NCBI GenBank assembly: GCA_964435855.1
Contig: CAYTAU010000003.1
Span: 20,096-84,095, forward strand
Direction: 5' to 3'
DNA: 64,000 bases
Source: an uncultured Bacteroidales bacterium
GTDB lineage: Bacteria; Bacteroidota; Bacteroidia; Bacteroidales; CAYTAU01
Shown: piece after piece, positions 805 through 29,712 of the stretch
Layout: the number at the start of each line of letters is the position of its first letter
Numbering within the stretch: position 1 is the first letter of the stretch
Position numbers and translations under genes: made by a program
The notes under the pieces: generated by a model
The model's input: only the letters and a program-made list of their open reading frames with translations
What the model was told of the DNA's origin: nothing
Databases searched by the model: none

Positions 805-1554
805 TTAGAAAGAATTTATAATACCAACAAAATCATTTGCATTTAAAGCTGCTCCGCCAATTAATCCTCCATCAACATTTGGGTTTGAAAATAATTCTTT
901 GGCATTTGTTGGTTTGCAACTCCCTCCATAAAGTATGGATATATTATTTGCAATATCATTACCATATTGTTCTTGAATAACTTTTCTTATAAAAGCATGC
1001 ATTTCTTCTGCTTGCTTCGGGCTTGCGGTAAGGCCCGTGCCAATTGCCCATACCGGTTCATAAGCAATTATTAATTTTATGAGATCATAATTTTTGAGAT
1101 GAAACAAGCTTTCTTTTAATTGTTGTTTTACAACAGAAAAATGATTGTTAGAATTTCTTTCTTCAAGCATTTCTCCACAACAAAATATTGGTAATAATTG
1201 ATTTTTTAAAGCAATATCAAGTTTTTGCTTTAATATTTCGTTAGTTTCATTAAAATATGCTCTTCTTTCAGAATGTCCGATTAATACATATTCAATTCCT
1301 ATAGATTTTAACATTTCTGCAGAAACTTCACCTGTATAAGCACCTTTTTCATAGGCAGCACAATTTTGAGCTCCAATGCTTACAAAAGAATTATTAGTTT
1401 CATTTATAATATTACTTAAATGCGTAAACGGAGGAATTATAATTACTTTAACGTCATCATTTTTTACTGATCTGATAATATCAACAGAAAGATCTTTTCC
1501 TTCCTGAAGGTTTGTATTCATTTTCCAGTTTCCTGCAACAATTTTTTGTTTCAT
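805..1554 (-). CDS. tpiA: triosephosphate isomerase
   Basis: AGNWKMN, GHSERR, AYEPVWAIGTG, YGGS, GGLIGGA motifs; true start most likely MKQKIVAG at 1554 (the track start at 1581 lies inside a repeat). Confidence 0.97.
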   Translation of the reverse strand: MKQKIVAGNWKMNTNLQEGKDLSVDIIRSVKNDDVKVIIIPPFTHLSNIINETNNSFVSIGAQNCAAYEKGAYTGEVSAEMLKSIGIEYVLIGHSERRAYFNETNEILKQKLDIALKNQLLPIFCCGEMLEERNSNNHFSVVKQQLKESLFHLKNYDLIKLIIAYEPVWAIGTGLTASPKQAEEMHAFIRKVIQEQYGNDIANNISILYGGSCKPTNAKELFSNPNVDGGLIGGAALNANDFVGIINSF

Positions 1555-1576
1555 GTTTTTATATTTTATATTATTT

Positions 1577-1627
1577 GCCACTAATGCACGAATATATATT
1601 TTACTTTTTTATTAGTGCATTCGTGGC
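1577..1627. repeat. gene-less inverted repeat of the GxxExxY-flanking family
   Basis: GCCACTAATGCACGAAT (1577-1593) ... ATTAGTGCATTCGTGGC (1611-1627); arms nearly identical to 5254-5270 and 5727-5743. Confidence 0.9.
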
Positions 1628-2788
1628 TTATTTTCTTTTTTTAAAGAAATCATTTTCAAATTTCTCTATTTCAGGAATATCATTGTAATGCCATTTTCCT
1701 AAAATAGTTCCTTTTTTAAGCAATACTAAGCCGGGATTAGCTCTAACAATAGTTTTAAGAGTAATTTCATCTGTAGAATAAAATTCATAAGGAGCTTTTG
1801 TTTTATCTACAAACTCTTTAATGTGTATATCAATAGATGAGGTCATGCAAATAAATCCATAATTATTATTTGTACAATAATTTGTCAATTTATTAATCTG
1901 TTCTTGTTTGCTTATGCTTGATTCATTCAAGTCGTAAGCAATTAAAAGAAAATAGAATCGTTCATCTTCAAGTACAATATCGGTAATATCATACCCATCC
2001 TGAGATGTTATACTAAAATCGTGAATTGGTGGAGTATAACCTTTTTTTATAAGAATAGGTTCTGAACTATCAATAAATTCCCACGGTGAACCTTCATACC
2101 AATATATTGAATCATTAACATATTCTTCACTGTTAATTTCAAGGTCTTCGCCGGTTTCGGTGTTTTTCAAAACGTAATTATATATGTATTCATCTACAGG
2201 AGCACCATCGGGCATTTTCATGCCATCGGGTATATGTGTACCAACTTTGTATGGTCTGAAATCCATTAATGGCAAATGTTTATAACAATATATTGATAAT
2301 CCAAAAGTAAGTATAGCTAAAATAACTGTTATAATCCATTCTTTGCGGATTGATAGAAATGGTTTGTAGCTTTTCCTGAAATAGAAAACAATAAATGCAA
2401 TTATCAATATTATGATATTTTTATAAAACGTTTGCCAATTTGTTACAATCAGTGCATCGCCAAAGCAACCACAATCTTGAACAGGGTCGGCAATTGCTAT
2501 ATATAATGTTAATGGTGTAAAAACTATCATAAATAATAGTACTCCTAAGGAACTTATTTTAACTCTTATGTTTATTAACAAAGCAATACCAAACAGGAAT
2601 TCAATTGCCGACATAACAATAGCGAGAACAAATGATGCAGGAATCATCCAGTCCATACTAAATGCATCGTGAAAATAATCGGCAAATTTGTATGTGGAAC
2701 CAAGTGGGTCAATAACTTTTACAAAACCTGAAAAAATAAAAACTATAGCCAGTACTATTCTTGCTATTATTAATAAAATTTGTTTCAT
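1628..2788 (-). CDS. DoxX/MauE-like membrane protein with thioredoxin-like C-terminal region (BT_3928-like)
   Basis: FIFSGFVKVIDP, DCGCFGD, TLKTIVRANPG; typically adjacent to tpiA in Bacteroidota. Confidence 0.8.
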   Translation of the reverse strand: MKQILLIIARIVLAIVFIFSGFVKVIDPLGSTYKFADYFHDAFSMDWMIPASFVLAIVMSAIEFLFGIALLINIRVKISSLGVLLFMIVFTPLTLYIAIADPVQDCGCFGDALIVTNWQTFYKNIIILIIAFIVFYFRKSYKPFLSIRKEWIITVILAILTFGLSIYCYKHLPLMDFRPYKVGTHIPDGMKMPDGAPVDEYIYNYVLKNTETGEDLEINSEEYVNDSIYWYEGSPWEFIDSSEPILIKKGYTPPIHDFSITSQDGYDITDIVLEDERFYFLLIAYDLNESSISKQEQINKLTNYCTNNNYGFICMTSSIDIHIKEFVDKTKAPYEFYSTDEITLKTIVRANPGLVLLKKGTILGKWHYNDIPEIEKFENDFFKKRK

Positions 2789-2810
2789 TATGTTTATATT
2801 TTAATTAATC

Positions 2811-2895
2811 CGTCATTGCGAGTTCGCCAAAAGCGAACGTGGCAATCTCTTTATTAGTATCAGATTGCTTCATTCGTTCCTAATTCGCAATGACG
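2811..2895. repeat. branched palindromic REP-like element (GTCATTGCGA...TCGCAATGAC type)
   Basis: perfect 11-bp outer stem CGTCATTGCGA (2811-2821)/TCGCAATGACG (2885-2895); inner stems GTTCGC/GCGAAC and GCAATCT/AGATTGC. Confidence 0.85.
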
Positions 2896-3031
2896 TTGGT
2901 TATTTGTATTTTGTTCAAAATTATTAATAGGTATGTGAATTAACAAGTTTTATATGTAAAAAGATGTTAACGTGTGCTAAAATTAGACAGGATACAGCTA
3001 ATAAATTTTATTAGTTGATTTGGTTAATTAT

Positions 3032-5209
3032 CTAATCTTCTAACTGGTCTTCTAATTCAATCATAACGCTTGTTATTTCAACCATATCACCAATAGCAAC
3101 ATTTACTTTTTTAACAATTGCATTTTTTGTTGTTGTAATACTGTTTTCCATTTTCATAGCTTCAACAACAATTAATGTATCTCCTTTAGATACTTTGTCG
3201 CCTTCTTTTACATTTAACTTGAAAACCTTACCCGGCATTGGAGATTTTATATTATTGTCGCTACTTGATGATGCTCCGTCTGAACTTTCTGCTATATCAT
3301 CAATCAAAATGTCGTTTCGACTCATATTAAATTTGTCGCTGTTAATTGTAATAGCAAATTCTTTATCTTCTTTTACAATTTTTGCAAAGTATACTGTTTT
3401 ATCTATTGTAATATCAACTTCATCGTTATCAATATAGACTAAGTTTGCGACAAAAGTATTTCCTGCTATTATAAACTCATATTCCTTATCTTGTATTTTT
3501 CTAAACGCAACAGGAATTACTTCGTCTTTATAATTAATATCAACATTAATGAGGTTTCTCCAATACCCAATAGAGTTCCATACATTATGTTCTTTTGGCA
3601 AAAATGGTATTTCTCCAATTCTGCCTGTGTTTAATCCGTGTAATAAATACGCGGTTATTGCAACAGGATATTCAACTTTATCTTTTTTATACGATGTTCT
3701 GTTTGGTTTTTGACTTGTATTCATAGCTATATTTGTTTTTGATGTTTGAGGTGCTCTGAGTTTTTCCAGTTCGGCTTCAAAACTTTCTTTTGCCACACCC
3801 GACTTATAATCTCTATATTGTGTTTCGTGAATTGCAAATTCAAATAATTCTTCGTTGTCTTCTCCAAGTTCCCAATTGTTTTCTTTCATTTCTTTTCTGT
3901 ACTTATCAAGTACATTGGGATAAATTTCCTGAGGAACTCCTGTATAGAATTTTTTGCCTTGCTCTTTTGCCAGTTTTTCGAAAACAGGATCTATTTTCCC
4001 TGGTAGATTTCCTGCTCTTCCAAGCAACATATCCCATGTGTTAGGATCAATAGACATAAATCTTTCTTTACCTTGTGCAAGGTTCATTACATTTACTAAA
4101 GCAGTGTTTTTTACATACTGGCTAAATGGTGTTACCAATGGAGGATATCCCATAAGGGGCCATATATATGTTACTTCGTCGAATAGTTTTACAAGAAGTT
4201 CGTCTTCCGATAATTCAGGTTTTCCTGCTGCCGACATTGACATATTAATTGCTTCATGGACTCCTTTAAGGTCTGCCATCAAACTACCCATCATTCCGCC
4301 AGGTAATCCAGAATCTACCATTAATGATGATAAATATCTGTTTTTTGGATTAATGAAGAAGCCAAGAAAATCATCAATAAATTCCTGTGTTAATGCTCTT
4401 GCTTCCATATATGCCTTCATATTGATATCGGGAACATCAAAACCATCATCTAAAAGCATGTGGCGAATTGTAATAACGTCTGGATGAACCATTCCCCACG
4501 AAAGCGGTTCCATTGCAACATCAAGATAATCTGCTCCTGCTCTTGCTGCTTCAAGCATCGAAGCAACAGCAAAGCCGGGACCTGAATGACCATGATATTG
4601 AACAATTATATGTGGGTATTTATTTTTTATTGCTTTAATAAGTTTGCCGAGTGTTGCAGGTCTGCCAATTCCTGCCATATCTTTAAGACAAATCTCATCT
4701 GTTCCGTACTCAACCATTTTATCTACAACACCCATAAAATAATCAACAGTGTGTACTTTGGAATATGTAATACTTAATGTTCCCTGTGAGATTAATCCGG
4801 CCTCTTTAGCGTATTTTATTGATAATTCAAGATTTCTATGGTCGTTTAATCCGCAAAACGAACGTGCAATATCAACTCCTTGTGCTTTTTTTACTTTATA
4901 CATTAATTTACGAACATCGGCAGGAACAGGAAACATTCTAATACCGTTCAATGCACGTTCAAGCATGTGAGTTTGAATACCTGCTTCGTTAAATGGCTTT
5001 GTCCATTCACGAACTGCTTTATTTGGATTTTCACCATAAAGCAAATTAACTTGTTCAAAAGCACCACCATTTGTTTCAATTCTATCAAAACAGCCCATAT
5101 CAATAATAACAGGAGCTATTTTTTTTAATTGGTCAACCCTTGGGACATACTTTCCTGAAGATTGCCACATATCACGATAAACTAAACTAAATTTTATTTG
5201 TTTCTTCAT
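3032..5209 (-). CDS. pyruvate/oxaloacetate carboxyltransferase domain fused to a linker/BT-like domain and a biotin carboxyl carrier domain
   Basis: RDMWQS, ICLKDMAG, HGH, LPGGM, GYPPLVTPFSQ (OadA/PycB/5S-type TIM barrel); C-terminal SPMPGKV...EAMKMEN biotinylation motif. Confidence 0.88.
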   Translation of the reverse strand: MKKQIKFSLVYRDMWQSSGKYVPRVDQLKKIAPVIIDMGCFDRIETNGGAFEQVNLLYGENPNKAVREWTKPFNEAGIQTHMLERALNGIRMFPVPADVRKLMYKVKKAQGVDIARSFCGLNDHRNLELSIKYAKEAGLISQGTLSITYSKVHTVDYFMGVVDKMVEYGTDEICLKDMAGIGRPATLGKLIKAIKNKYPHIIVQYHGHSGPGFAVASMLEAARAGADYLDVAMEPLSWGMVHPDVITIRHMLLDDGFDVPDINMKAYMEARALTQEFIDDFLGFFINPKNRYLSSLMVDSGLPGGMMGSLMADLKGVHEAINMSMSAAGKPELSEDELLVKLFDEVTYIWPLMGYPPLVTPFSQYVKNTALVNVMNLAQGKERFMSIDPNTWDMLLGRAGNLPGKIDPVFEKLAKEQGKKFYTGVPQEIYPNVLDKYRKEMKENNWELGEDNEELFEFAIHETQYRDYKSGVAKESFEAELEKLRAPQTSKTNIAMNTSQKPNRTSYKKDKVEYPVAITAYLLHGLNTGRIGEIPFLPKEHNVWNSIGYWRNLINVDINYKDEVIPVAFRKIQDKEYEFIIAGNTFVANLVYIDNDEVDITIDKTVYFAKIVKEDKEFAITINSDKFNMSRNDILIDDIAESSDGASSSSDNNIKSPMPGKVFKLNVKEGDKVSKGDTLIVVEAMKMENSITTTKNAIVKKVNVAIGDMVEITSVMIELEDQLED

Positions 5210-5250
5210 ATACTTATATTTTCATGCTATTGTCGCTAATGAGTTATTTT

Positions 5251-5746
5251 TTTGCCACGAATGCACGAATTTTTATTAAATAATTTATTCTGTACATTAG
5301 TGTAATTCGTAATTTAAAATACTATTCTTTTATAATTTAATTTTAATTCTCCAAAATTAACAAGTAAGGATAATTTATTATCAGAAACTTTTAAATAATT
5401 TATACATTGTGCTAAATGTTCATCTGCAAAACCTTTTGAAAGTGCCTTAACCTCAAGAATAATCTTGTTATAAATAACAAAGTCAGCAAAAAAATTATGA
5501 GGTAGAATGAAATCTTTATAATTTACTTCGTATTTCACCTCTCTTTCATATTTAACACCTGCTTTTTTAAATTCATATTCTAATGCGTCTTTATAAACAA
5601 TTTCTAAAAATCCTGCACCCAAATTGTTATGTACTTCCATACATATACCTATGACTTTATATGCTTCTTCTTTATATATTAAATCAGTCAAATAAATTTT
5701 CTTTTTTCTATACTATTAATGTTTTCATTCGTGCATTCGTGGCAAA
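5251..5746. mobile_element. putative mobile cassette: GxxExxY nuclease gene between perfect 20-bp terminal inverted repeats
   Basis: TTTGCCACGAATGCACGAAT (5251-5270) and ATTCGTGCATTCGTGGCAAA (5727-5746) are exact reverse complements. Confidence 0.65.
5314..5691 (-). CDS. GxxExxY family protein (PD-(D/E)XK nuclease-like), copy 1
   Basis: GFLEIVY motif, ADFV...LEVKA catalytic-like motif, LLVNFG; TTG start. Confidence 0.92.
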   Translation of the reverse strand: MTDLIYKEEAYKVIGICMEVHNNLGAGFLEIVYKDALEYEFKKAGVKYEREVKYEVNYKDFILPHNFFADFVIYNKIILEVKALSKGFADEHLAQCINYLKVSDNKLSLLVNFGELKLNYKRIVF

Positions 5747-5777
5747 TAATATTTTACTCTTATTTCAATTCTCAAAT

Positions 5778-6566
5778 TTATTTTACCCAATTAGGTTTTC
5801 TTTTTTCTAAAAACGATGCCATTCCTTCTTGTCCCTCTTTTGAAGCTCTTAATTCAGCTATCATTTTAGCCGTATAATCAATACTTTCGTCAAAAGTAAG
5901 TGTATTTGATATATCATAAATTAAAGTTTTACATGCAGCCATGGCATCAGGCCCGCTAGTCATTAATACTCTAATTATTGAATTTACATGTTCGTCAAGT
6001 TGTTCTGTTGGTAATGATTTGTTAACTAAGTTATATAATTCGGCTTCTTTACCTAAAAATCTTCTACCAGTAAGCATTAAATCTCTAGCACCATATTCTC
6101 CAATTCTTTTTGCAACATAAGGTGAAATTGTTGCAGGAGCAATACCAAGTTTAACTTCGCTAAATGCGAATTTTGTTTCATCATCACAATACACAAAATC
6201 ACATGCTGCAAGAATACCATTTGCACCACCAATAGCAGCACCATGAACAACTGCAATAGTAGGTTTTTTGCATGTGTAAATTACATTAAAACATTTAGCC
6301 AAACGTAAGCTATCCTGATAATTTTCTTCATAACCAAATTCTGCAATACCTTTCATGTAATTAAGGTCTGCACCTGCACAAAACGATTTTCCTCTACCTT
6401 TAATAATTGCAATTCTAACATCATCCATATTGTTAATCTCCTCGAAACAATCAATTATTTCGGAAATCATAATATCATTCATTGCATTATGCTTATCAGG
6501 ACGATTGAACCAAACCGTTCCGATATTATCTTTTAATTCAAATTCTATGTTTGTATAATTTTTCAT
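5778..6566 (-). CDS. enoyl-CoA hydratase, methylglutaconyl-CoA hydratase-like (paralog A)
   Basis: NRPDKHNA, FCAGADL, GAAIGGANG, SEVKLGIAPA, EGQEGMASFLEKRKPNW; context with MCC beta subunit. Confidence 0.88.
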   Translation of the reverse strand: MKNYTNIEFELKDNIGTVWFNRPDKHNAMNDIMISEIIDCFEEINNMDDVRIAIIKGRGKSFCAGADLNYMKGIAEFGYEENYQDSLRLAKCFNVIYTCKKPTIAVVHGAAIGGANGILAACDFVYCDDETKFAFSEVKLGIAPATISPYVAKRIGEYGARDLMLTGRRFLGKEAELYNLVNKSLPTEQLDEHVNSIIRVLMTSGPDAMAACKTLIYDISNTLTFDESIDYTAKMIAELRASKEGQEGMASFLEKRKPNWVK

Positions 6567-6586
6567 CTTATATACTTTATATTTTT

Positions 6587-7084
6587 GCCGCGAATGCGCT
6601 AATGTTTTTTTATTCGCGAATTAGTGGCTTATTATTTTTCTTGCAGTATCAAATACAATTCTTTTATAATTCAATTTTAATTCCCCAAAATTAACAAGTA
6701 AGGATAATTTATTACCAGAAACTTTTAAATAATTTATACATTGTGCTAAATGTTCATCTGCAAAACCTTTTGAAAGTGCCTTAACTTCAAGAATAATCTT
6801 GTCATAAATAACAAAGTCAGCAAAAAAATGATGAGGTAGAATGAAATCTTTATAACTTACTCCGTATTTTACCTCTCTTTCATATTTAACACCTGTTTTT
6901 TTAAATTCATATTCCAATGCGTCTTTATACACTATTTCTAGAAATCCAGCTCCTAAATTGTTATGTACGTCCATACATTTACCTATTACATTATATGCTT
7001 CTTCTTTATATATTAAATCAGTCATTTAGGTTCTCTTTTATTTCATTCCATGAATCGCTAATATTTTATTCGCGAATTAGCGGC
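6587..7084. mobile_element. second GxxExxY cassette flanked on both sides by imperfect hairpins of the same repeat family
   Basis: GCCGCGAATGCGCTAAT (6587-6603)/ATTCGCGAATTAGTGGC (6612-6628) on one side; CCATGAATCGCTAAT (7048-7062)/ATTCGCGAATTAGCGGC (7068-7084) on the other. Confidence 0.6.
6621..7025 (-). CDS. GxxExxY family protein (PD-(D/E)XK nuclease-like), copy 2
   Basis: 9 differences in 125 aa from copy 1; 9-aa C-terminal extension whose stop codon lies in the repeat arm. Confidence 0.92.
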   Translation of the reverse strand: MTDLIYKEEAYNVIGKCMDVHNNLGAGFLEIVYKDALEYEFKKTGVKYEREVKYGVSYKDFILPHHFFADFVIYDKIILEVKALSKGFADEHLAQCINYLKVSGNKLSLLVNFGELKLNYKRIVFDTARKIISH

Positions 7085-7093
7085 TATTTTTCA

Positions 7094-7882
7094 TTATTTA
7101 ACCCAGTTTGGTTTTCTTTTGTCAAGAAACGACGCCATTCCTTCTTGTCCCTCTTTTGATGCTCTCAGATCAGCGATCATTCTAGCAGAATAATCTATTG
7201 AACTGTCAAACGTTTTAATATTTGAAATATCAAATATCAAGTTTTTGCACGATGACATAGCATCAGGTCCGCTTGTCATAAGATTTCTAATTATATTACT
7301 GACAAATTCTTCAAGTTCATTTTCGGGTAATGATTTATTAACAAGTTTATATTTTTCTGCTTCATCACCTTTAATTCTTCTTCCGGAAAGCATTAGATCT
7401 TTTGTTCCAAATTCTCCAACTCGCTTTAAAATATATGGTGAAATACAAGCAGGAACAATCCCTATCTTTACTTCACTAAGCGAAAAAGTTGTGTTCTGCT
7501 CTGCAAAAGCATAATCACATGTTGCAATAAAACCATTTGCACCTCCAATTGCAGCTCCATGTACAACAGCTATTGTTGGTTTGTTACAAGTATATATAGT
7601 TTTAAAACATTCTGAAACAATAAGACTTTCGTTATAATTTTCCTGATAACTGTATTTTGCTACATCACGCATCCAGTTTAGGTCTGCACCTGCGCTAAAT
7701 GATTTTCCTCTTCCTCTTATAACAACAACACGAACATCATTCATCTTGTTGATTTCTGAATAACATTCAATAATTTCTTTAAGCATTACTGCATTAAAGG
7801 CATTATGAATCTCTGGTCGGTTTAACCAAATTATCCCGATATTATCGGAAAGTTCGAATTGTATGGTTTTGTAATTATTCAT
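7094..7882 (-). CDS. enoyl-CoA hydratase, methylglutaconyl-CoA hydratase-like (paralog B)
   Basis: NRPEIHNAFN, FSAGADLNWM, SEVKIGIVPACISPY; same length as paralog A. Confidence 0.88.
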   Translation of the reverse strand: MNNYKTIQFELSDNIGIIWLNRPEIHNAFNAVMLKEIIECYSEINKMNDVRVVVIRGRGKSFSAGADLNWMRDVAKYSYQENYNESLIVSECFKTIYTCNKPTIAVVHGAAIGGANGFIATCDYAFAEQNTTFSLSEVKIGIVPACISPYILKRVGEFGTKDLMLSGRRIKGDEAEKYKLVNKSLPENELEEFVSNIIRNLMTSGPDAMSSCKNLIFDISNIKTFDSSIDYSARMIADLRASKEGQEGMASFLDKRKPNWVK

Positions 7883-7891
7883 TAAACCAAA

Positions 7892-9499
7892 TTACATTCT
7901 AAATACTCCGTTGTTATGTTCAGGATATGGATTATTAAGTGACATTGCAATGCCCATTGCAACAATTTTGCGGGTATCAACAGGGTCAATTATTCCATCG
8001 TCCCAAAGGCGTGCTGTACTGTAATAAGCCGAACCTTCTTTTTCGTATTTGCCCATTATAGCACTTTTCATTTTATCTATTTCCTCTTGTGGCATTTCCT
8101 GCCCTTTAAGTTTGTACTGATCCATTTTTACCTGTATCAATACATTGGCGGCTTGCTCGCCTCCCATTACAGAAATTTTTGCATTTGGCCACATATGTAA
8201 TAATCTTGGGCTGTATGCTCGACCTGCCATACCGTAGTTTCCTGCACCAAATGAGCCACCCATAAGAACTGTGAATTTAGGTACATTTGCATTTGCAACT
8301 GCATGAACCAGTTTTGCTCCGTCTTTTGCAATACCTTTTCTTTCAAAATCTTTACCAACAATAAAACCAGTAATGTTTTGCAAGAATAACAAAGGAATTT
8401 TTCTTGTTGTACAAAGTTCAATAAAGTGAGTAGCTTTTAATGCCGTTTCAGAAAACAAAACACCATTATTGGCAATTATACCAACAGGAAATCCCATTAT
8501 TCGGGCAAATCCTGTAACAATTGTTGTTGCGTATCTTTCTTTAAATTCGTGAAATTTACTTCCATCAACCATTCTCATGATTACCTCTCTTGGGTCAATC
8601 ATTTTTTTAAAGTTAATTGGTGCTATTCCATATAATTCAGTTTGGTCATATAATGGTTCTTCAATTGGTAAAATATCAAGTTTTTGTTTTACTGGCTCTT
8701 TCAGCGATTGGAAAATATTTCGACATATCTGAATTGCATGAGTATCATTTTCCGCCATATGATCTGCTACACCTGAAATTGATGTATGAACTTCTGCTCC
8801 TCCCAACTCTTCGGGAGTAACAACTTCACCGGTTGCAGCTTTTACTAATGGAGGACCTCCAAGAAAAATAGTTCCTTGTTCTTTTACAATGATAGCTTCA
8901 TCACTCATGGCAGGGACATAAGCTCCTCCTGCTGTACACGATCCCATTACAATGGCAATCTGAGGAATACCCATTGCTGAAAATTTTGCCTGATTATAGA
9001 AAAATCTGCCAAAGTGATTTTTATCGGGAAACACTGTGTCTTGCTCAGGCAAGAAAGCTCCTCCACTATCAACCATATAAACACAGGGCAAATGATTTTC
9101 CATTGCTATTTCCTGTGCACGCAAATGTTTTTTAATGGTATATTGCATGTACGTACCGCCTTTAACTGTAGCATCGTTAGCAATTATCACTGTTTCTCTG
9201 CCATGAATAATTCCAATTCCTGTAACAATTCCTGCTGAAGGAAAACCATTATCATAAAGATTATAGGCAGCAAGCGATGATAATTCAAGAAATGGTGTGT
9301 TTGTATCTATTAACAAATTTATTCTTTCGCGTGCAAGCAATTTCCCTCTGGATTTATGTTTTTCAATTGCTTTTTCGGAGCCACCACGAGTAACCGATTT
9401 ATGAATTTCGTTATATTTGTTTAAGAGTTCTTGAAATTCTTCTTTATTCTTTTTAAACTCATCGGAGTTTGTATTAATCTTTGTTTCTAATGTAAACAC
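7892..9499 (-). CDS. 3-methylcrotonyl-CoA carboxylase beta (carboxyltransferase) subunit
   Basis: [62 protein letters not shown] end. Confidence 0.92.
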
Positions 9500-9700
9500 A
9501 GCTTTTTATTTTTTGATTGATTATTTATATATTTTTTAAAATAATTTTTTAATAAGGCACAAATTTATAAAAAAAAATGATTTTTCATATTGTAAACAGG
9601 TGTTGTTTAAAATAAAAAAAGTTGATATGAACTATATTTAATACAATACATTGCTTCTGATTGTACCTTAAATATCCTGAATTAAATTTTAAAATTGAAT

Positions 9701-10777
9701 TTACTTATATTCTTTAACTTCTACTTCACCTTTAAGAACCATAAAACAATTCATTGCAAGTGCCATCATTTCGTCTTCGCCCGGATATATCATTACATTA
9801 CCAATATGCTTAACTCTTTCTGTAATAAGGTCGGTAAATTTTTCGCTGTATGCTATGCCACCTGTAAGAATAATGATATCAACATTGCCTTTTAGCACTG
9901 TGCTCATAGCACCAATGAGTTTTGCTATCTGGTATGCCATTGCATTATATATTAATGTAGCTTTTTTGTTTCCTTCTTCTACTAATTCTTCAATTTCAAC
10001 CATATTATTTGTACCCATGTATGCAATAACACCACCGCCTCCTTTTAATTTGTGCAATATTTCATATTTTGTGTATTTTCCGGAAAAACAAAGATTAACA
10101 AGTTGTCCTGATGGAATTCCACCTGCTCTTTCAGGAGAAAACGGACCATCGCCGTTAAGCCCGTTATTAGTATCAATAACTCGTCCTTTGCAATGTGCAC
10201 CAACTGTAATGCCTCCGCCTATGTGAGCAACAATTATATTAAGGTCTTCGTATTTCAATCCTTTTTCTTTGGCATACCTGCGTGCAACAGCTTTTTGATT
10301 TAATGTATGCAGAAAACTAAGCCTTGGTATTTCAGGAATGCCTGATATTCGTGCTATTTCGTCCATTTCATCAACGCAAACCGGATCGGCAATGTAAGCG
10401 TTTATATTTTTTCCTGCCATCTTGGCAATTTCATAAGCAATAATTCCGCCCAAATTTGATACATGTTCGCCAATAGGGTTTTTAGCATCTTCAATCATTG
10501 TTTTGTTTACTTTATAAACACCGCCTTCAATCGGTTTTAATAATCCTCCTCTGCCAATAACTGCACTAACTTTTTTTATATCAATACTGGCTTCCGATAA
10601 CTCTTTAAGTATTTTTTCTTTGCGATATTTATACTGATCTGATATATTCTCAAATTTTGATATGTCTTCAACAGAATGTTTGATATTTTTAAGAAATATC
10701 AATTTTGTATTTATAGTTACAGCTACTTTTGTTGAAGTAGAACCCGGGTTTATTACTATAATCTTAAAAAAACTCAT
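9701..10777 (-). CDS. buk: butyrate/branched-chain carboxylate kinase
   Basis: INPGSTSTK, GRGGLLKP, DPVCVDE, GPFSPERAG, YPGEDEM. Confidence 0.95.
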   Translation of the reverse strand: MSFFKIIVINPGSTSTKVAVTINTKLIFLKNIKHSVEDISKFENISDQYKYRKEKILKELSEASIDIKKVSAVIGRGGLLKPIEGGVYKVNKTMIEDAKNPIGEHVSNLGGIIAYEIAKMAGKNINAYIADPVCVDEMDEIARISGIPEIPRLSFLHTLNQKAVARRYAKEKGLKYEDLNIIVAHIGGGITVGAHCKGRVIDTNNGLNGDGPFSPERAGGIPSGQLVNLCFSGKYTKYEILHKLKGGGGVIAYMGTNNMVEIEELVEEGNKKATLIYNAMAYQIAKLIGAMSTVLKGNVDIIILTGGIAYSEKFTDLITERVKHIGNVMIYPGEDEMMALAMNCFMVLKGEVEVKEYK

Positions 10778-10921
10778 AATATTTAATATGTTAATGTGTG
10801 TTTGTTCGCTTTGCTCATGTTATTCCATTGTCATTGATATCTAATCTTGATTTCATATTTGCAAAATATTTATCAAAGCCTTATCAATAGTGCATTTTTT
10901 TAGTTATATACTAATGATAAA

Positions 10922-11827
10922 TTAATTGTCAGTTATTGCAGCAGCTAATGCTATTGATAAAAACTTACTTTTTTCACTATCTGATCTTGATGTTAACACA
11001 ATTGGAACTTTTGCTCCCATAACTACAGAAGCAGAAACTCCTCCACCTATAAATGCAATGCTTTTATATAGAATATTTCCGGAATTAATATCAGGAACCA
11101 GAATAATATCGCATTCACCCGCCACATAACTTCTAATTCCTTTATGCTCGGCAGATTCTTTTGAAACTGCATTATCAAGAGCTAATGGTCCGTCAATAAT
11201 GCAATTTTTAATTTGTCCTCTTCTATTCATTTGCGTTAAAGCAGCTGCATGTACTGTTGCTTCCATTTTAGGGTTAACAACTTCAACTGCTCCAATAACC
11301 GCAACTCTTGGGATTTTTACTCCAAGTTTATGAAATGCTTCAACGGCATTTTTTACAATAGCCAGCTTTTCGTTAAGGTCTGGTGTAATATTCATTGCTG
11401 CATCGGTAATTCCAAATATTTTATGATAATATGGACTTTCAAAAAATGCAATATGACTTAATACTTTTTCTTTTCGCAATCCTCTTTCTTTATCAAGAAC
11501 TGCTTTTAATAATGGACCTGTACTTACCATTCCTTTCATTAATATTTCTCCACCTCCATTGCTTATAATAGTAACCGCTAGTTGTGCCGCCTTAACAGAA
11601 TTTGCAATATCAATAATTTCTATTTCTTTAAGATCAAAGCTAATCTCCTTACTTATTTTTGTTATTATTTTTCTATCTCCAACGAGAATGGGATTAATAA
11701 TGCCTTCTTTTTTTGCATCACGAACAGCAACAAGTACATGATGATCTGCTGCAGCAGCAACAACAAGTCGTATTGTTTTTTTGCCTTTTGCAATCTCAAC
11801 AAATTGTGATAGTGTTTTTAGTTTCAT
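10922..11827 (-). CDS. ptb: phosphate butyryltransferase
   Basis: LMKGMV, TDAAMNI, DGPLALDNA, PIVLTSRSD; adjacent to buk. Confidence 0.9.
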   Translation of the reverse strand: MKLKTLSQFVEIAKGKKTIRLVVAAAADHHVLVAVRDAKKEGIINPILVGDRKIITKISKEISFDLKEIEIIDIANSVKAAQLAVTIISNGGGEILMKGMVSTGPLLKAVLDKERGLRKEKVLSHIAFFESPYYHKIFGITDAAMNITPDLNEKLAIVKNAVEAFHKLGVKIPRVAVIGAVEVVNPKMEATVHAAALTQMNRRGQIKNCIIDGPLALDNAVSKESAEHKGIRSYVAGECDIILVPDINSGNILYKSIAFIGGGVSASVVMGAKVPIVLTSRSDSEKSKFLSIALAAAITDN

Positions 11828-11839
11828 ATTTTTATTTTT

Positions 11840-11953
11840 TTAGACGCTGATTAACGCTGATTTTTATGATTCTTTTTTTTCTTATCATACATGATCTGTG
11901 TTCATCTGCGTCTAATTTTTTCTTATTATAATAATCTTTGTTCATCTGTGTCA
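11840..11953. repeat. imperfect inverted repeat made of tandem ACGC(A/T)GAT units
   Basis: TTAGACGCTGATTAACGCTGAT (11840-11861) vs ATCTGTGTTCATCTGCGTCTAA (11894-11915); extra right arm ATCTTTGTTCATCTGTGTCA near 11934-11953. Confidence 0.75.
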
Positions 11954-11968
11954 GTTATTTCACATAGT

Positions 11969-13171
11969 TTATCTGTTAACAATTTTTAAAGTATCTCTGG
12001 CAATAACTAATTCTTCGTTAGTTGGAACAACTAGAACTTTAACTTTTGAATCAGGCATTGAAATATCTGTTAGTTTAGCTCGTAAACCATTATTAACTTC
12101 ATTGTTAAACTCGACTCCCATATATTCTAAACCTTCGCATATTGCTTTACGGGTTTCATATCCGTTTTCACCAATTCCGCCTGTAAATACAATAATATCA
12201 ACACCACCCATTGCAGCAGCATAGGCACCAATATATTTCTTCACTCTATAGAAATACATATCCAGGCCCAGTTTGGCTCTTTCATTACCATTTTCCCAGG
12301 CTTCAATTTCTATCTCTCTCATATCTGAAGAAACTCCGGTAATTCCCAACATACCACTATGCTTATTAAACAAGGCATTTGATGCAGCTATGCCAATCTC
12401 TTCCTTATCCATAATATAAGTCAGTATTCCAAGGTCAAGATCACCTGAGCGTGTACCCATTATCAGTCCCTCTGTTGGTGTAAATCCCATTGAAGTATCA
12501 ACAGACTTACCGTTTTTAATTGCAGTTACTGAAGCTCCGTTTCCAAGATGGCAAGTAATAATTTTTAAGCTATTGTAATCTTTACCCAGAAATTCTGCGG
12601 CTGTTTCAGAAACATATTTATGACTTGTTCCGTGAAATCCATATCTTCTGATTCCATATTTTTTATATAATGAATATGGGATTCCATACATATAAGAATG
12701 CTGAGGCATTGTATGATGAAAAGAGGTATCAAAAACACCAACCTGAGGCACATCAGGAATTAAGACAGAAATTGCTTCAATTCCTTTCAGATTAGCAGGA
12801 TTATGGAGAGGAGCCAGATCGACCAGTTCATTCACAACTTCTATTACCTCATCCGTAATCATAGTTGATTCATGAAATCTTTCGCCACCATGAGCAACTC
12901 TGTGCCCCACAGCGTTAATTTCTTTCAAATTTTTAATGCAGCCATGTTTTTCACTTATTAATATTCCAAGAATATATTCTATACCTATTTTATGGTCAAG
13001 TATTTCACCTTCAAATTTTACTTTTTGTCCTGATTGTTTTTCATGTTTAATGACAGATCCTTTGAGTCCAACTTTATCAACAATACCTTTTACAATAATA
13101 GTTTGACCAATCATTTCAAAAAGTTGGTATTTTATTGATGAACTTCCACAGTTTAATACTAATATTTTCAT
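11969..13171 (-). CDS. ackA: acetate kinase
   Basis: NCGSSSIKY, GHRVAHGG, APLHNP, RYGFHGTSH, TSMGFTP, PTNEE. Confidence 0.97.
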   Translation of the reverse strand: MKILVLNCGSSSIKYQLFEMIGQTIIVKGIVDKVGLKGSVIKHEKQSGQKVKFEGEILDHKIGIEYILGILISEKHGCIKNLKEINAVGHRVAHGGERFHESTMITDEVIEVVNELVDLAPLHNPANLKGIEAISVLIPDVPQVGVFDTSFHHTMPQHSYMYGIPYSLYKKYGIRRYGFHGTSHKYVSETAAEFLGKDYNSLKIITCHLGNGASVTAIKNGKSVDTSMGFTPTEGLIMGTRSGDLDLGILTYIMDKEEIGIAASNALFNKHSGMLGITGVSSDMREIEIEAWENGNERAKLGLDMYFYRVKKYIGAYAAAMGGVDIIVFTGGIGENGYETRKAICEGLEYMGVEFNNEVNNGLRAKLTDISMPDSKVKVLVVPTNEELVIARDTLKIVNR

Positions 13172-13264
13172 TTTTTCTATTTTTATTTTTTATGCCAAAA
13201 ACTGTATGTTGCTAATAATCATTCTACTTTGTGATATCAAATGATTACTTTTTACATATTTGTT

Positions 13265-14218
13265 TCACTTAACTTTATATATTCTTTTGCCTTTTTCATT
13301 ATACTTATAAAAACCCATACCTGTTCTTCTGCCTAAGTTATTTGAACGAACTAGTTTTTTCAATATAGGTGAAGCTTTATATTTCATATCACCAAATTCT
13401 CCATAAAGATTATCGAGCCACCTTACAACCTTATCGATACCAATTTTATCTGCCATTTCAAAAGGTCCAATACCAAAACTATCTTTTATTGTTTTGTCAA
13501 TATCCTCTTTAGAACCTACGCTTTCCATCATTACTTCACATGCCTCGTTAACTAATACAGCATAAAGTCTTACACTAATAAGTCCAGGGGATTCTCCAAC
13601 AGGGACTGCAACTTTCTGAAGTAATTTTGTGAATTTTTTTACACGTTTACAAGTTTCATCACTAGTAAATAAACCCCTGACAACCTCAATAATGTTTGCA
13701 TCAGGTGTAGAAGTTGAAAAATGCAGGCTCACACAACGGTCATTATGTTTAAGTTCGGATGACAGTTCTGTAATTACAGTAGTTGTTGAATTAGTTGCAA
13801 TAATTGTATCAGGCTTAACATATTTTTCAATATTTTTAAAAATTACCTTTCTTTCCTCAACCATCATTTCTCTGGTTTTTGACTTGATAGCATCGATTAC
13901 AATATCGCATCCTGTTAAACTTTTATAATCGATACTTCCATGAATTCTCGACATAATAAGTCGTTTTTCAGTATTTGTCATACCCCAATGATCAATCATT
14001 CTATCAAGTGTCATTTCGATTTCGATAAGGGCATGTTTTATTTTTTCTTTGGATAATTCGATAAAGATAACATCCATACCATTCGTACTTATCATACGTG
14101 CAATATTTTGTCCCACCGAGCCACATCCTACTATTCCGACTTTTGAAAAAAGTTCTTTTGGGACTTTTTTTTGACCAAGACCGTATTTTTCTACAGGTTC
14201 TATAATTACTTCTGACAT
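13265..14218 (-). CDS. 3-hydroxyacyl-CoA dehydrogenase family protein (atypical active site)
   Basis: GCGSVG Rossmann motif, ATNSTT, GPFEMADKIGID, LGRRTGMGFY. Confidence 0.8.
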   Translation of the reverse strand: MSEVIIEPVEKYGLGQKKVPKELFSKVGIVGCGSVGQNIARMISTNGMDVIFIELSKEKIKHALIEIEMTLDRMIDHWGMTNTEKRLIMSRIHGSIDYKSLTGCDIVIDAIKSKTREMMVEERKVIFKNIEKYVKPDTIIATNSTTTVITELSSELKHNDRCVSLHFSTSTPDANIIEVVRGLFTSDETCKRVKKFTKLLQKVAVPVGESPGLISVRLYAVLVNEACEVMMESVGSKEDIDKTIKDSFGIGPFEMADKIGIDKVVRWLDNLYGEFGDMKYKASPILKKLVRSNNLGRRTGMGFYKYNEKGKRIYKVK

Positions 14219-14273
14219 ATTGTAAAATATAAATATTTAGTTAATCATTAAATTTAAAATAAAAAAGTTGGCA

Positions 14274-15275
14274 TTAAATGTTAGTTGCTTGATTTGCTGT
14301 TATTGCAACAAGGTTGATAATATCACTAACAGAGCATCCTCTTGAAAGATCGTTAATTGGTGCTGCCATGCCTTGTAAAATTGGTCCTATTGCTTCAGCA
14401 CCTGCCATTCTTTGAACAAGTTTATAGGCAATATTTCCTGATTCTAAAGTAGGAAATACAAGAACGTTGGCTTTTCCGGCAATTTCGCTACCGGGAGCTT
14501 TTTTTTGACCAATTGCTTCAATGATTGCCGCATCTGCCTGTAATTCACCATCAATTTTCAATAACGGGTCCATTTCTCTTGCAATATTTGTTGCTTCAAC
14601 TACTTTATCAACCATTTCGTGTTTCGCACTTCCTTTTGTTGAGAAACTTAACATAGCAACTCTTGGTTCCATTTTGGCAATTGCTTTTGTTGTTTTTGCT
14701 GTAGCTATTGCTATTTCTGCTAATTCTATTGCTGTTGGATCGGGGTGTACAGCACAATCGGCAAATACTATCATGCCATTATTACCATATTGTTTATCTT
14801 TTAAAATCATAATAAATGCACCTGAAACAACGCTAATATCAGGCAATGTTTTTACATATTGAAATGCAGGGCGAAGCACATCGCCTGTAGCATTCATAGC
14901 ACCGGCAACTTCACCATCTGCATCACCTGCTTTTATCATAACTGTGGCAAGATATAGTGGGTCTTCTATTTGTTTTAAAGCCATTTCTTTAGTCATCCCT
15001 TTATGCTTTCTTAATTCTACCATTATGTCTGCATAAGCATCTTTTTTTTCATGACTAACAGGATCAATAATTTTAGCACTTTCAATATTATTCAGGCTAA
15101 ATTCTGTGGCTTTGTTCCTTATTTCATCAGGGTTGCCAATTAAAATAATCTGAGCAATGCCTTCAGCAATAATTTCGTTAGCTGCTTTTAGAGTTCTTTC
15201 TTCTGTTCCTTCAGGTAAAACAATTCTTTTGTTATACTTTTTTGCATTTTCTTTAATCTCATTTAACAAATTCAT
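14274..15275 (-). CDS. pta: phosphate acetyltransferase
   Basis: IVLPEG, FADCAV, LSFSTKGS, DGELQADAA, GNIAYK, NDLSRG. Confidence 0.96.
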   Translation of the reverse strand: MNLLNEIKENAKKYNKRIVLPEGTEERTLKAANEIIAEGIAQIILIGNPDEIRNKATEFSLNNIESAKIIDPVSHEKKDAYADIMVELRKHKGMTKEMALKQIEDPLYLATVMIKAGDADGEVAGAMNATGDVLRPAFQYVKTLPDISVVSGAFIMILKDKQYGNNGMIVFADCAVHPDPTAIELAEIAIATAKTTKAIAKMEPRVAMLSFSTKGSAKHEMVDKVVEATNIAREMDPLLKIDGELQADAAIIEAIGQKKAPGSEIAGKANVLVFPTLESGNIAYKLVQRMAGAEAIGPILQGMAAPINDLSRGCSVSDIINLVAITANQATNI

Positions 15276-15418
15276 TGCATATCAATTGTTTAATAAGTTT
15301 TATAAATTGTGAATTTTAGTAAAATATTGCTTTACAAGATAATGTAATTATTTAATTTTTACATTTTTTTTTTAGTGTTTAAAAACAATAAAAACATATA
15401 ATATGCTTATTAATAAAT

Positions 15419-16369
15419 TTAAACTTTTATTCTATAAATAAAAAACGAACCTATAAGAGCAGGAATTGCCAGATTAATAATCCATAATATAATTGATGCT
15501 GAAAGCGTTCCTGTAAAATCTGAAATAAATAATTCTGTGAAATAAATCATTACAGAGCCTCTAATTCCTAATTCTGCAAGTGTAATTGAAGGAATTAATG
15601 CCATAATAAAATATGTTGCAACAATTATAAGAATAGCTTCATGTAAAGGCAAATTGACATCAAAGAAAATAAAGAGCAAATAAAATTGAATTAGAAAAAT
15701 AAAATATCTAACAATACTTAATAATAATACTTTTAATAGTTCTTTTTTGGAATATGAAGAAAATATGATAAAATTTTCTTTGTATTTATCTAACCACCTT
15801 ATTTTTGATAATAGCCAATTAATAATTTTAACATTAAAATAAAATGTAATAGAAAATATTGCAATTAAAAACATTAAACTAATTACAATGTATAATTGAC
15901 TTAAATTAAATTGAAACTTATTTAATAATATTAAGACTATTACTGATAAGCTACCCAAAAATATAGTTGTTGTTAATTGGCTAATACTACCAACAATTGT
16001 AGAGAATATTGCTTTTGTTCTGTTGTGATTTTTCAGTACAAAAATTCTACCTGCAAATTCGCCCGTTCTGTTTGGGGTAAATATTGCAACCGTGATTCCT
16101 GATAAAACTGCTTTGAAGGAAATTAATGTTGGGACTTTTTCAAATTTAGAAATTAATAATTTCCATTTAATTGCTTCTATCATCCAATTGGCAAACATTA
16201 ATACAAAAACAATTAAAAATAATAATATCCCATTAATATTAATTTTGAATAATTCGGATAGTGTGCTTTGCAATTCTTCATACTCGTATAACTTGTACAC
16301 AATAAAGCTATACGAAGCAATAATAATTAACAGTTTTAAAATTAATTTTATGTTTTTATTGATTTTCAT
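15419..16369 (-). CDS. lysylphosphatidylglycerol-synthase-TM/flippase-like membrane protein
   Basis: multi-TM; NWMIEAIKW, TPNRTGEFAGR, ELGIRG. Confidence 0.75.
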   Translation of the reverse strand: MKINKNIKLILKLLIIIASYSFIVYKLYEYEELQSTLSELFKININGILLFLIVFVLMFANWMIEAIKWKLLISKFEKVPTLISFKAVLSGITVAIFTPNRTGEFAGRIFVLKNHNRTKAIFSTIVGSISQLTTTIFLGSLSVIVLILLNKFQFNLSQLYIVISLMFLIAIFSITFYFNVKIINWLLSKIRWLDKYKENFIIFSSYSKKELLKVLLLSIVRYFIFLIQFYLLFIFFDVNLPLHEAILIIVATYFIMALIPSITLAELGIRGSVMIYFTELFISDFTGTLSASIILWIINLAIPALIGSFFIYRIKV

Positions 16370-16442
16370 TTTTAAAGAAAAACAAATATACGTTTTTAAT
16401 GGAATGTTTTTTATTTTTGACTTCTAATAAAATTAAGAATTA

Positions 16443-17225
16443 TTGAAAGCACATAGTAATCCCAAAAAAAGTTTAGGGCAACATTTTCTTGTCGATAAAA
16501 ATATTGCCAATAAAATAGTTAATAGCCTTACTGATAAAACAGCGAGAAATGTAATTGAAGTTGGTCCGGGAAGGGGAGTATTAACGGAAATACTTTATGA
16601 GAAATATAAGGAGAAATTATTTCCGATTGAGATTGATACTGAATTATTTAACCAATTATCGAACAAATTTCCGGTACTAAAGAATAATATTTTTAATGTT
16701 GATTTTTTAAAATTTGATATTTTAAAAGAATTTACAGAACAAACATCAGTGATAGGAAATTTTCCATATAATATTTCAAACCGAATATTTTTTAAAATAT
16801 TAGAGAGTAAGCAAATAATACCTGAAGTTGTTTGCATGATTCAAAAAGAAGTTGCTGAAAGAATTAATTCAAAATCGGGCAATAAGGTTTATGGAATTTT
16901 AAGTGTTTTGCTTCGGGCATTCTATAATATTGAATATCTTTTTACTGTTAATGAAACTGTTTTTGACCCACCACCAAAAATAAAATCGGCTGTAATACGA
17001 TTAAGTCGTAAGGATGATTTTTCAATTGATTGCAATGAAAAAGATTTTTTTATAATTGTAAAAACAGCTTTTAATCAGCGAAGAAAAATGTTGAGAAACT
17101 CACTTAAAAGTTTGTTGCAAGATAAAAATATTGAAAATGAAATTTTAACGAAAAGACCTGAACAGCTTTCTGTTAAAGAATTTGTTTATTTAACTAACCT
17201 TTTAATGCCAATTACACTTTCTTGA
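16443..17225 (+). CDS. rsmA: 16S rRNA adenine dimethyltransferase KsgA
   Basis: KKSLGQHFL, EVGPGRG, GNFPYNIS, QKEVAER, PPPKIKS, FNQRRK. Confidence 0.96.
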   Translation: MKAHSNPKKSLGQHFLVDKNIANKIVNSLTDKTARNVIEVGPGRGVLTEILYEKYKEKLFPIEIDTELFNQLSNKFPVLKNNIFNVDFLKFDILKEFTEQTSVIGNFPYNISNRIFFKILESKQIIPEVVCMIQKEVAERINSKSGNKVYGILSVLLRAFYNIEYLFTVNETVFDPPPKIKSAVIRLSRKDDFSIDCNEKDFFIIVKTAFNQRRKMLRNSLKSLLQDKNIENEILTKRPEQLSVKEFVYLTNLLMPITLS

Positions 17226-28073: not shown

Positions 28074-28125
28074 TGGTAACAACAAATAAAAAACATCAAA
28101 ACGCGTTCTATTAGGGACGTTAGCC
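28074..28125 (+). other. attC-like site immediately after the stop codon (degenerate)
   Basis: TGGTAAC (28074-28080) ... GTTAGCC (28119-28125) with central TAAAAAACATCAAAACG. Confidence 0.35.
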
Positions 28126-28200
28126 CCACAAACCCAAGCAAGTGAAATCCTAAAAATAAGTCAAAAGTGTTATCCTGAGCATACCGAAGAATCAAATATA

Positions 28201-28243
28201 TTTTGCGGTCTTTGCGTATTTACTTTGCGAACTTTGCGTGAAA
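28201..28243. repeat. solo right arm of the GCAAAG-unit repeat
   Basis: TTTGCGGTCTTTGCGTATTTACTTTGCGAACTTTGCGTGAAA closely matches 19747-19790. Confidence 0.8.
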
Positions 28244-28402
28244 TAAATCTAAAATATAAAATCGAAAAAACTATCTTTGCTTTTTTTAATTAAAATTTGC
28301 AATACAATTACAACAGGTATTTTACAGTTATATATTAATGTTCTGTAATAGTTTTGTCTTTAATTCCTCCCATTTGGGGAGGCTAGGAGGGGCTTTTATT
28401 CA

Positions 28403-29707: not shown

Positions 29708-29712
29708 ACATT

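Follow-up and report, generated by a model that had tools for sequence, protein, structure and literature searches.

Methylcrotonyl-CoA carboxylase (MCC) and the Propionibacterium transcarboxylase (EC 2.1.3.1), the latter composed of 12S, 5S and 1.3S subunits and docked through the N-terminal peptide of 1.3S, are the described systems closest to the gene cluster analysed here. To our knowledge, among the biotin transcarboxylases only the methylmalonyl-CoA enzyme has been characterised. The cluster is located in a stretch of 64,000 nucleotides (the window) from an uncultured Bacteroidales bacterium (assembly GCA_964435855.1, contig CAYTAU010000003.1, forward-strand positions 20,096 to 84,095). 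The initial annotation had described an MCC-beta-type carboxyltransferase (CT) gene, two hydratase-like genes and then a 725-residue protein in the place of MCC alpha, and these open reading frames were recovered at their positions. The 725-residue protein is a fusion of a 5S/OadA/PycB-type CT domain, a BT domain and a biotinyl domain. With a probability of roughly 0.7, we propose that the fusion protein and MCC-beta form an oxaloacetate:3-methylcrotonyl-CoA transcarboxylase for ATP-free leucine/isovalerate catabolism. The proposal of a two-subunit ATP-free enzyme is supported by the homology of the BT domain, a docking model, the gene inventory and synteny, while we infer that such an enzyme is catalytically active, with pyruvate/oxaloacetate as its second substrate pair, and likewise infer its stoichiometry and a catabolic direction.

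The segment between the two recognisable ends of the fusion protein had been described as reminiscent of the BT domain of acyl-CoA carboxylase alpha chains, and a domain parse of residues ~510-640 bore this out by both MCC-alpha homology and a helix/eight-strand fold. Pfam searches at E<=10 on residues 504-725 matched no BT family and phmmer of residues 504-651 against the PDB returned chance-level matches only (E>=0.53); the BT homology surfaced only via tblastn/BLASTP to Bacteroidota MCC alpha and via the fold. One genome per species was scanned using an alignment of the C-terminal module as query, and the best eight loci (L019-L026) were all canonical BC-BT-BCCP alpha subunits of 663-685 aa, where BC is the biotin carboxylase domain. 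They aligned to residues 9-228 of the 231-residue module with 30-36% identity (E values of 1e-26 to 3e-30) and belonged to Marinilabiliales, Lentimicrobiaceae, Cytophagales, Bacteroidales and an unclassified 'Bacterium' metagenome-assembled genome (L024). The metagenome loci L181 and L186-L195 likewise aligned the module with the C-termini of BC-BT-BCCP alpha subunits (11/11). The fusion protein and Bacteroidota MCC alpha share the hook N-V-W-x-x-I-G-Y/F-W-R, the proteobacterial form of which is P-W-...-G-W-R. The AF2 model of the C-terminal module showed one helix followed by eight strands with pLDDT values of 80-90, and Foldseek returned 47 matches at E<=1e-3, led by chains of MCC, propionyl-CoA carboxylase (PCC) and acetyl-CoA carboxylase (ACC) spanning BT-BCCP. 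The top match was Mycobacterium smegmatis MCC (2.9e-7), and the BT-only chain 9tqg_L gave a TMt of 0.61. Residues ~511-640 are thus a true BT domain of MCC-alpha origin, by sequence and by fold.

A pyruvate carboxylase PT domain was also considered for residues 511-640 and was excluded by the eight strands and by the best fold and sequence matches, which were BT domains of MCC, PCC and ACC. Downstream of the BT domain, Biotin_lipoyl matched with 56.1 bits at residues 653-719, and the AMKM motif occupied residues 684-687, with M685, K686, M687 and E688 invariant in 31/31 aligned fusion proteins. Some family members (P0009, P0011 and P0014, of 949-951 aa, and P0063, of 875 aa) have the BT domain followed by three (or two) biotinyl domains in tandem, each with AMKM.

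The interaction between the BT domain and MCC-beta was evaluated by modelling fusion residues 502-642 together with MCC-beta, using a separate custom alignment for each chain. The model returned an ipSAE of 0.83 (0.79, 0.83 and 0.87 in three runs), while the highest of three controls reached 0.25; 58/80 solved complexes and 2/110 mismatched pairs attain the ipSAE mark. At least 82% of contacts were common to the runs, and the partner pLDDT was 78 or more. The confident interface comprised residues 543-553 of the fusion protein (the hook; 49-59 of the fragment), together with 525-528 and 632-635, and residues 65-70, 96-97, 335-337 and 504-518 of MCC-beta. The hook therefore docks in this predicted model, in agreement with the earlier expectation that the fusion protein binds the beta subunit. 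Since MCC and PCC holoenzymes have been solved, this result expresses likeness to such complexes and is not proof of binding by this pair.

The CT subunit itself matched solved MCC beta subunits most strongly, namely 9tps_A (737.5 bits; the same sequence set as 9tqc, titled Legionella pneumophila MCC), human MCCC2 (695.3) and 3u9r_B (694.8). Weaker matches were obtained with geranyl-CoA carboxylase beta (460.6 bits), 12S (276.4) and GcdA (181.1), and the protein is 71-80% identical to beta subunits paired with a canonical MCC alpha in other Bacteroidota. By these sequence comparisons, the 535-residue protein is a crotonase-fold acyl-CoA CT of the MCC-beta subclass, not 12S, and a predicted hexameric core subunit acting on 3-methylcrotonyl-CoA / 3-methylglutaconyl-CoA.

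The N-terminal half of the fusion protein was then compared with characterised enzymes. Pfam assigned HMGL-like to residues 130-233 and PYC_OADA to residues 351-483, and phmmer against the PDB returned the beta subunit of two-subunit pyruvate carboxylase (5ks8_C, 2.5e-44), 5S (1rqb_A, 5.5e-36) and OadA (2nx9_A, 8.6e-32). The full-length model had a mean pLDDT of 70.5; over its N-terminal ~500 columns Foldseek gave TMt values of 0.74-0.75 for 5S, including 0.75 against pyruvate-bound 5S (1rqh), and 0.77 for OadA. For the protein as a whole, the best fold match was 5ks8_D (2.2e-32). Nine residues (R12, D13, Q16, K176, H206, H208, T360, S363 and Q364) were invariant in 32-35 of 35 fusion N-domains and in 5/5 distant PycB/OadA-type outgroup sequences. 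In the alignment to the PDB matches they coincide with the RD..QS, KDMA, HxH and TPxSQ motifs, and we take them to be the metal ligands, the carbamylated lysine and the catalytic threonine of the 5S and pyruvate carboxylase literature. The N-domain is also the most conserved part of the protein, with 75-82% identity between fusion loci compared with 33-46% for the C-terminal module. The domain is predicted to act on pyruvate/oxaloacetate.

Another assignment of this domain would have it act on a different 2-oxo acid (2-oxoglutarate or 2-oxobutyrate), or serve as a non-catalytic scaffold, leaving a plain methylglutaconyl-CoA decarboxylase or an inactive complex. The low identity to characterised enzymes, the missing of every curated cut-off and the uncharacterised paralog family point in that direction, but the invariance of the candidate metal and catalytic residues, the strong conservation of the domain and its fold match to 1rqh argue against it, and we regard this assignment as very improbable.

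The position of the fusion gene was compared with related operons. Canonical operons (L186, L188, L193) are ordered MCC-beta (71-79% identical to that of the window), enoyl-CoA hydratase, MCC alpha, acyl-CoA dehydrogenase (ACAD) and 3-hydroxy-3-methylglutaryl-CoA (HMG-CoA) lyase, at times followed by 3-oxoacid CoA-transferase (ScoAB), while the fusion locus L161 reads ptb, buk, a GxxExxY relative, MCC-beta (78% identity), hydratase, fusion, ACAD and HMG-CoA lyase. The fusion gene therefore occupies the slot of canonical MCC alpha (liuD) in otherwise equivalent operons. MCC-beta and a hydratase lie immediately upstream of the fusion in 5/5 readable loci, namely the window, L128 (G385), L129 (G306), L136, where the MCC-beta frame spans residues 1-480 only, and L161; the suggested co-occurrence with MCC-beta in other genomes was thus verified, and extends to the hydratase. 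Either buk or ptb-buk also adjoins MCC-beta in L131 (G110), L161 and L181.

A hydratase gene directly follows MCC-beta in all related operons compared. The two hydratases of the window are 66% identical to each other in protein sequence, and their best NCBIfam match was gamma-carboxygeranoyl-CoA hydratase (NF004227), with 244.7 bits for copy b and 240.6 for copy a, below the cut-off of 426. Copy a, at 73-77% identity, is the ortholog of the lone hydratase in other fusion operons. Downstream of each hydratase gene lies a GxxExxY gene, which the initial annotation did not mention. The two GxxExxY copies share 92% protein identity and 95% DNA identity over 300 nucleotides, whereas DNA identity between the hydratase genes flanking them is only 75%. 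Repeats of 35 nucleotides at 5723-5757, 6608-6642 and 7064-7098 bracket the GxxExxY genes; in L161 the GxxExxY relative lies between buk and MCC-beta, and six such reading frames occur in the genome bearing the window. From their sequences, these genes resemble a small intergenic passenger that is mobile or subject to gene conversion, and they probably stand outside the pathway.

Full-length fusions were found in 3 of 401 genomes sampled across the class: the genome bearing the window (G000), G385 and G306. A large protein collection held at least 119 clusters at 65-79% identity among 8000 candidates scored. A strict hook-plus-biotin pattern was present in 110 of the 119; of the other nine, five had a looser hook pattern and four a hook-like stretch by inspection. 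In a quick maximum-likelihood tree of 82 N-domains, all 35 fusions fell on one side of one branch (SH-aLRT 87), nested among stand-alone paralogs, the closest being those of the three fusion-bearing genomes; the 581-residue stand-alone paralog of G000 is 78% identical to fusion residues 1-485. In the tree of 59 BT-BCCP modules, 31 fusion and 4 'stand-alone' modules formed one clade (support 100), sister to 18/19 Bacteroidota MCC alpha modules, with proteobacterial modules as outgroup. The four stand-alone BT-BCCP proteins (P0214, P0228, P0244, P0259) scatter among fusion sequences (4 changes) and may be gene-call fragments or secondary fissions, rather than a split form. The two trees are consistent with the fusion having arisen in a single event, and one origin suffices. 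We consider it fairly likely that the protein family represents a second natural class of biotin transcarboxylase, made once in Bacteroidota by a 5S-type domain replacing the BC domain of MCC alpha, and providing ATP-free carboxylation in leucine/isovalerate metabolism of anaerobes.

The window had been reported to be devoid of BC and OadB genes, and a profile search (PF02786) found none there. Genome searches found no 660-680-residue BC-BT-BCCP alpha subunit in G000, G385 or G306; G000 is 96% complete, so its absences are to be read as 'not found'. A dedicated MCC biotin carboxylase, raised as a possible objection by the initial annotation, was likewise not found in the three genomes, each of which has only one ~500-residue AccC-type BC. 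In G000 this is a 502-residue AccC on contig C35, within its own AccC-BCCP-CT operon, while G385 and G306 each encode a CarB (~1075 aa) plus one ~500-residue AccC-like gene. The PF02786 search of G000 gave no CarB-like double match, unlike G385 and G306, the gene being missing from the assembly or absent.

G000 encodes four full-length acyl-CoA CTs plus an AccA-AccD fusion, and four strong biotinyl domains. The CT/carrier pair on C35 has AccC as partner for the second half-reaction, that on C98 has MmdB and that on C42 has the 581-residue 5S-type paralog; the sole OAD_beta of the genome lies on C98, in an epimerase-MmdA-OAD_gamma-MmdC-MmdB (methylmalonyl-CoA decarboxylase) operon. As carriers and CTs pair one to one and three pairs have their own partner, the fused 5S domain is left for the MCC-beta pair of the window.

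On C42, the paralog gene (26275-28020, plus strand) is convergent with genes for a 106-residue biotin carrier (28100-28420, minus) and a 12S/MmdA-type CT (28445-29989, minus; loci L015 and L007). The paralog has no BT domain and its C-terminal biotinyl-like domain is without the MKM lysine. This cluster may be a classic methylmalonyl-CoA:pyruvate transcarboxylase; as a conserved three-subunit transcarboxylase it was rejected, since none of 24 metagenome loci of the ~590-residue Bacteroidota paralogs had a CT or carrier within ±9 kb (less at contig ends), and it is kept as a local observation only.

The same inventory bears on an ATP-dependent hybrid, in which AccC would carboxylate the biotin of the fusion protein in trans and the carboxyl group would pass to methylcrotonyl-CoA or pyruvate, giving a bifunctional MCC/two-subunit pyruvate carboxylase with one carrier. 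Each of the three fusion genomes does encode one AccC-type BC, and the best NCBIfam and PDB matches of the fusion protein are PycB-type subunits, which are partners of a separate BC subunit. However, the AccC of G000 sits within its own operon, the middle domain is a BT domain matching MCC/PCC/ACC rather than pyruvate carboxylase, and the loss specifically concerned the BC domain, which relatives of the subunit carry in cis; the hybrid also leaves the tethering of a second CT to the carrier unexplained. We therefore judge it unlikely.

In the proposed transcarboxylase, the ATP-dependent BC domain of an MCC-alpha-like subunit would be replaced by the 5S/OadA-type CT domain, the BT domain would anchor the fusion protein on the MCC-beta core and the biotinyl domain would swing between the two CT sites. 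Carboxybiotin would be formed from oxaloacetate on the 5S-type domain and discharged onto 3-methylcrotonyl-CoA on MCC-beta, so that oxaloacetate + 3-methylcrotonyl-CoA <-> pyruvate + 3-methylglutaconyl-CoA would proceed without ATP or bicarbonate. The hydratase(s) would then make HMG-CoA, and an HMG-CoA lyase encoded elsewhere in the genome would yield acetoacetate and acetyl-CoA. PEP carboxykinase, which is encoded in G000, would convert phosphoenolpyruvate (PEP) and CO2 to oxaloacetate with gain of ATP, and the subsequent transcarboxylation would amount to a carboxylation at zero ATP cost; this energy argument rests on textbook reactions. The upstream hbd-like, ptb-buk and pta-ack genes, possibly co-transcribed with the cluster, would fit an ATP-yielding formation of butyrate and acetate out of acetoacetyl-CoA and acetyl-CoA. 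Scanned for promoters and terminators, positions 1500-16600 gave counts at chance level (90 versus 83.9 expected and 7 versus 6.5), which left the operon limits undefined.

Contig C93 of G000 encodes an ACAD, 3-oxoacid CoA-transferase A/B (both above cut-off) and an HMG-CoA-lyase fragment. The HMG-CoA-lyase-like pieces at the contig ends (C93 14998-15428 and C243 2058-2513), downstream of the ACAD and 3-oxoacid CoA-transferase A/B genes, cover profile positions 13-147 and 140-274, and C93 and C243 probably join at a split HMG-CoA-lyase-like gene. Two further HMG-CoA-lyase-like genes were detected, while HMG-CoA synthase was not found in G000.

Transcarboxylation is near equilibrium, as established for EC 2.1.3.1, and the enzyme might run in reverse, from 3-methylglutaconyl-CoA and pyruvate to 3-methylcrotonyl-CoA and oxaloacetate. 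It would then supply isovaleryl-CoA for iso-branched lipids, in which Bacteroidota are rich, or isovalerate through ptb-buk, in the manner of the alternative isovaleryl-CoA route of myxobacteria. The location of ptb-buk directly upstream agrees with this direction, but it is made improbable by the failure to find an HMG-CoA synthase in the 96%-complete G000 and by the HMG-CoA-lyase-like, ACAD and 3-oxoacid CoA-transferase genes, which in L161, L186 and L188 share one operon, arranged as in catabolic liu clusters. For the same reasons, the catabolic direction of the proposed transcarboxylase is favoured.

Several observations weigh against the transcarboxylase interpretation. The best NCBIfam matches of the fusion protein were PycB, OadA and 5S, all far under their cut-offs (PycB NF006761, 289.4 against 402; TIGR01108, 264.3 against 756.5; NF010643, 221.7 against 892); the 5S model gave 157.8 against 827, so the protein is not a 5S equivalog. 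The 5S-type domain is about 21-33% identical to characterised enzymes and, together with the missed cut-offs, this leaves pyruvate/oxaloacetate as a presumed substrate. Its closest relatives, the ~590-residue paralogs, are themselves uncharacterised and, in the 24 metagenome loci, have no CT or carrier neighbours. The docking result may reflect model memory of solved MCC and PCC holoenzymes, and in the monomer models the pLDDT of the hook was below 50. Both trees come from quick searches with no bootstrapping, and the support of 87 for the N-domain clade is below the mark of 95. The stand-alone AccC of every fusion genome could in principle carboxylate the fusion biotin, and a sequencing-run lookup listed no RNA run containing the window stretch; the single DNA run with a strong match may be the source sample.

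The features of the locus are listed in the table below. GC content across the window is low, about 0.26-0.39, and its proteins have their nearest named relatives in entries labelled Bacteroidales or Marinilabiliales.

Table 1. Genes and domains of the transcarboxylase-like locus, in window positions, with the same-strand genes upstream.
Feature	Position	Strand	Remarks
pta	14274-15275	-	Same-strand upstream context
hbd-like 3-hydroxyacyl-CoA dehydrogenase	13265-14218	-	Same-strand upstream context
ack	11969-13171	-	Same-strand upstream context
ptb	10922-11827	-	Same-strand upstream context
buk	9701-10777	-	Same-strand upstream context; next upstream of the MCC-beta gene
MCC-beta-type acyl-CoA CT, 535 aa	7892-9499	-	Carboxyl_trans 500.8 bits
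Enoyl-CoA hydratase copy b, 262 aa, methylglutaconyl-CoA-hydratase-like (LiuC position)	7094-7882	-	ECH_1 173.5 bits
GxxExxY / PD-(D/E)XK_3 gene copy b, 134 aa	6621-7025	-	TIGR04256 125.2 bits
Enoyl-CoA hydratase copy a, 262 aa	5778-6566	-	Crotonase family
GxxExxY / PD-(D/E)XK_3 gene copy a, 125 aa	5314-5691	-	TIGR04256 128.6 bits
Fusion protein P0001, 725 aa	3032-5209	-	HMGL-like + PYC_OADA + Biotin_lipoyl
Fusion residues 1-485, 5S/OadA/PycB-type TIM-barrel CT domain	3755-5209	-	
Fusion residues 486-510, low-complexity linker ending in conserved 'PNR.SY.K'	3680-3754	-	pLDDT <50 at 484-501
Fusion residues 511-640, BT domain (helix, hook, eight-stranded barrel)	3290-3679	-	
BT hook N542-R551 (NVWNSIGYWR), predicted MCC-beta contact	3557-3586	-	
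Fusion residues 651-725, biotinyl carrier domain with A-M-K-M motif	3035-3259	-	
Lys686, predicted biotin attachment site	3152-3154 (codon)	-	

Elsewhere in the window, tandem genes for 446-residue Glu/Leu/Phe/Val-type dehydrogenases (43713-45053 and 45243-46583, minus strand) adjoin that of a 1143-residue PPDK_N-domain protein (46648-50079). Two large secreted CotH-kinase / lamin-tail-domain proteins are encoded at 53445-56504 and 57919-60807 (minus strand); the former carries a type IX secretion system (T9SS) sorting tail, and a further T9SS-tail protein is located between them at 56571-57926.

If the proposed transcarboxylase activity is correct, the range of biotin transcarboxylases would widen by a new acyl-CoA partner, a new substrate pair and a new architecture, and an anaerobe would run the leucine/isovalerate pathway without spending ATP on carboxylation, a saving that counts where amino-acid fermentation yields little energy. 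The protein would also provide a natural model for carboxylating enoyl-CoA esters without ATP. Family members are publicly labelled 'oxaloacetate decarboxylase', 'pyruvate carboxylase subunit B' or 'biotin/lipoyl-binding protein', so that a pathway reconstruction which demands a BC domain in MCC alpha would count these organisms as lacking leucine degradation, and the annotation would need correction.

A methylcrotonyl-CoA transcarboxylase or a 5S-BT-BCCP protein was not found described in the full text of open-access papers and bioRxiv, supplements and subscription journals aside. The matching passages of PMC3199775, PMC7382037, PMC10579272 and PMC11575231 describe no such enzyme; in these passages, divergent transcarboxylase-like sequences were set aside (PMC3199775) and the propionate route of Xylanibacter was assigned to a Na+-pumping decarboxylase rather than a transcarboxylase (PMC11575231).

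Compared with known systems, the fusion protein shares its N-domain with the stand-alone ~590-residue Bacteroidota 5S-like proteins, which are without BT and are not located beside MCC-beta. PycB and OadA, its best whole-protein matches in sequence and fold, likewise join CT and BCCP in one chain, but the fusion protein has an extra BT domain of ~130 residues of MCC-alpha origin and scores under every curated cut-off. None of their partner genes (OadB/OadG, a dedicated PycA) was found near the fusion gene, the sole OAD_beta and the sole BC being in the mmd and AccC-BCCP-CT operons. The locus resembles MCC (EC 6.4.1.4; LiuB/LiuD, MCCC1/MCCC2) in its beta subunit and in the BT-BCCP half of alpha, and its hydratase neighbour and liu-type slot are also those of MCC. 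Unlike MCC, it has a 5S-type CT in place of the N-terminal ATP-grasp BC domain, with no CPSase_L_D2 or Biotin_carb match on the fusion protein, and the predicted carboxyl donor is oxaloacetate, not bicarbonate plus ATP. The predicted chemistry is that of the Propionibacterium transcarboxylase, with a biotin carrier moving between a crotonase-fold acyl-CoA CT and a TIM-barrel keto-acid CT without ATP, and the N-domain matches 5S in both sequence and fold. As in that enzyme, the carrier bears the MKM lysine and the operon has no BC domain. Unlike it, the acyl-CoA subunit is of the MCC-beta type (695-737 bits, versus 276 to 12S), the 5S domain, docking domain and carrier form a single chain, docking would take place via an MCC-alpha-derived BT domain and the predicted substrate is 3-methylcrotonyl-CoA.

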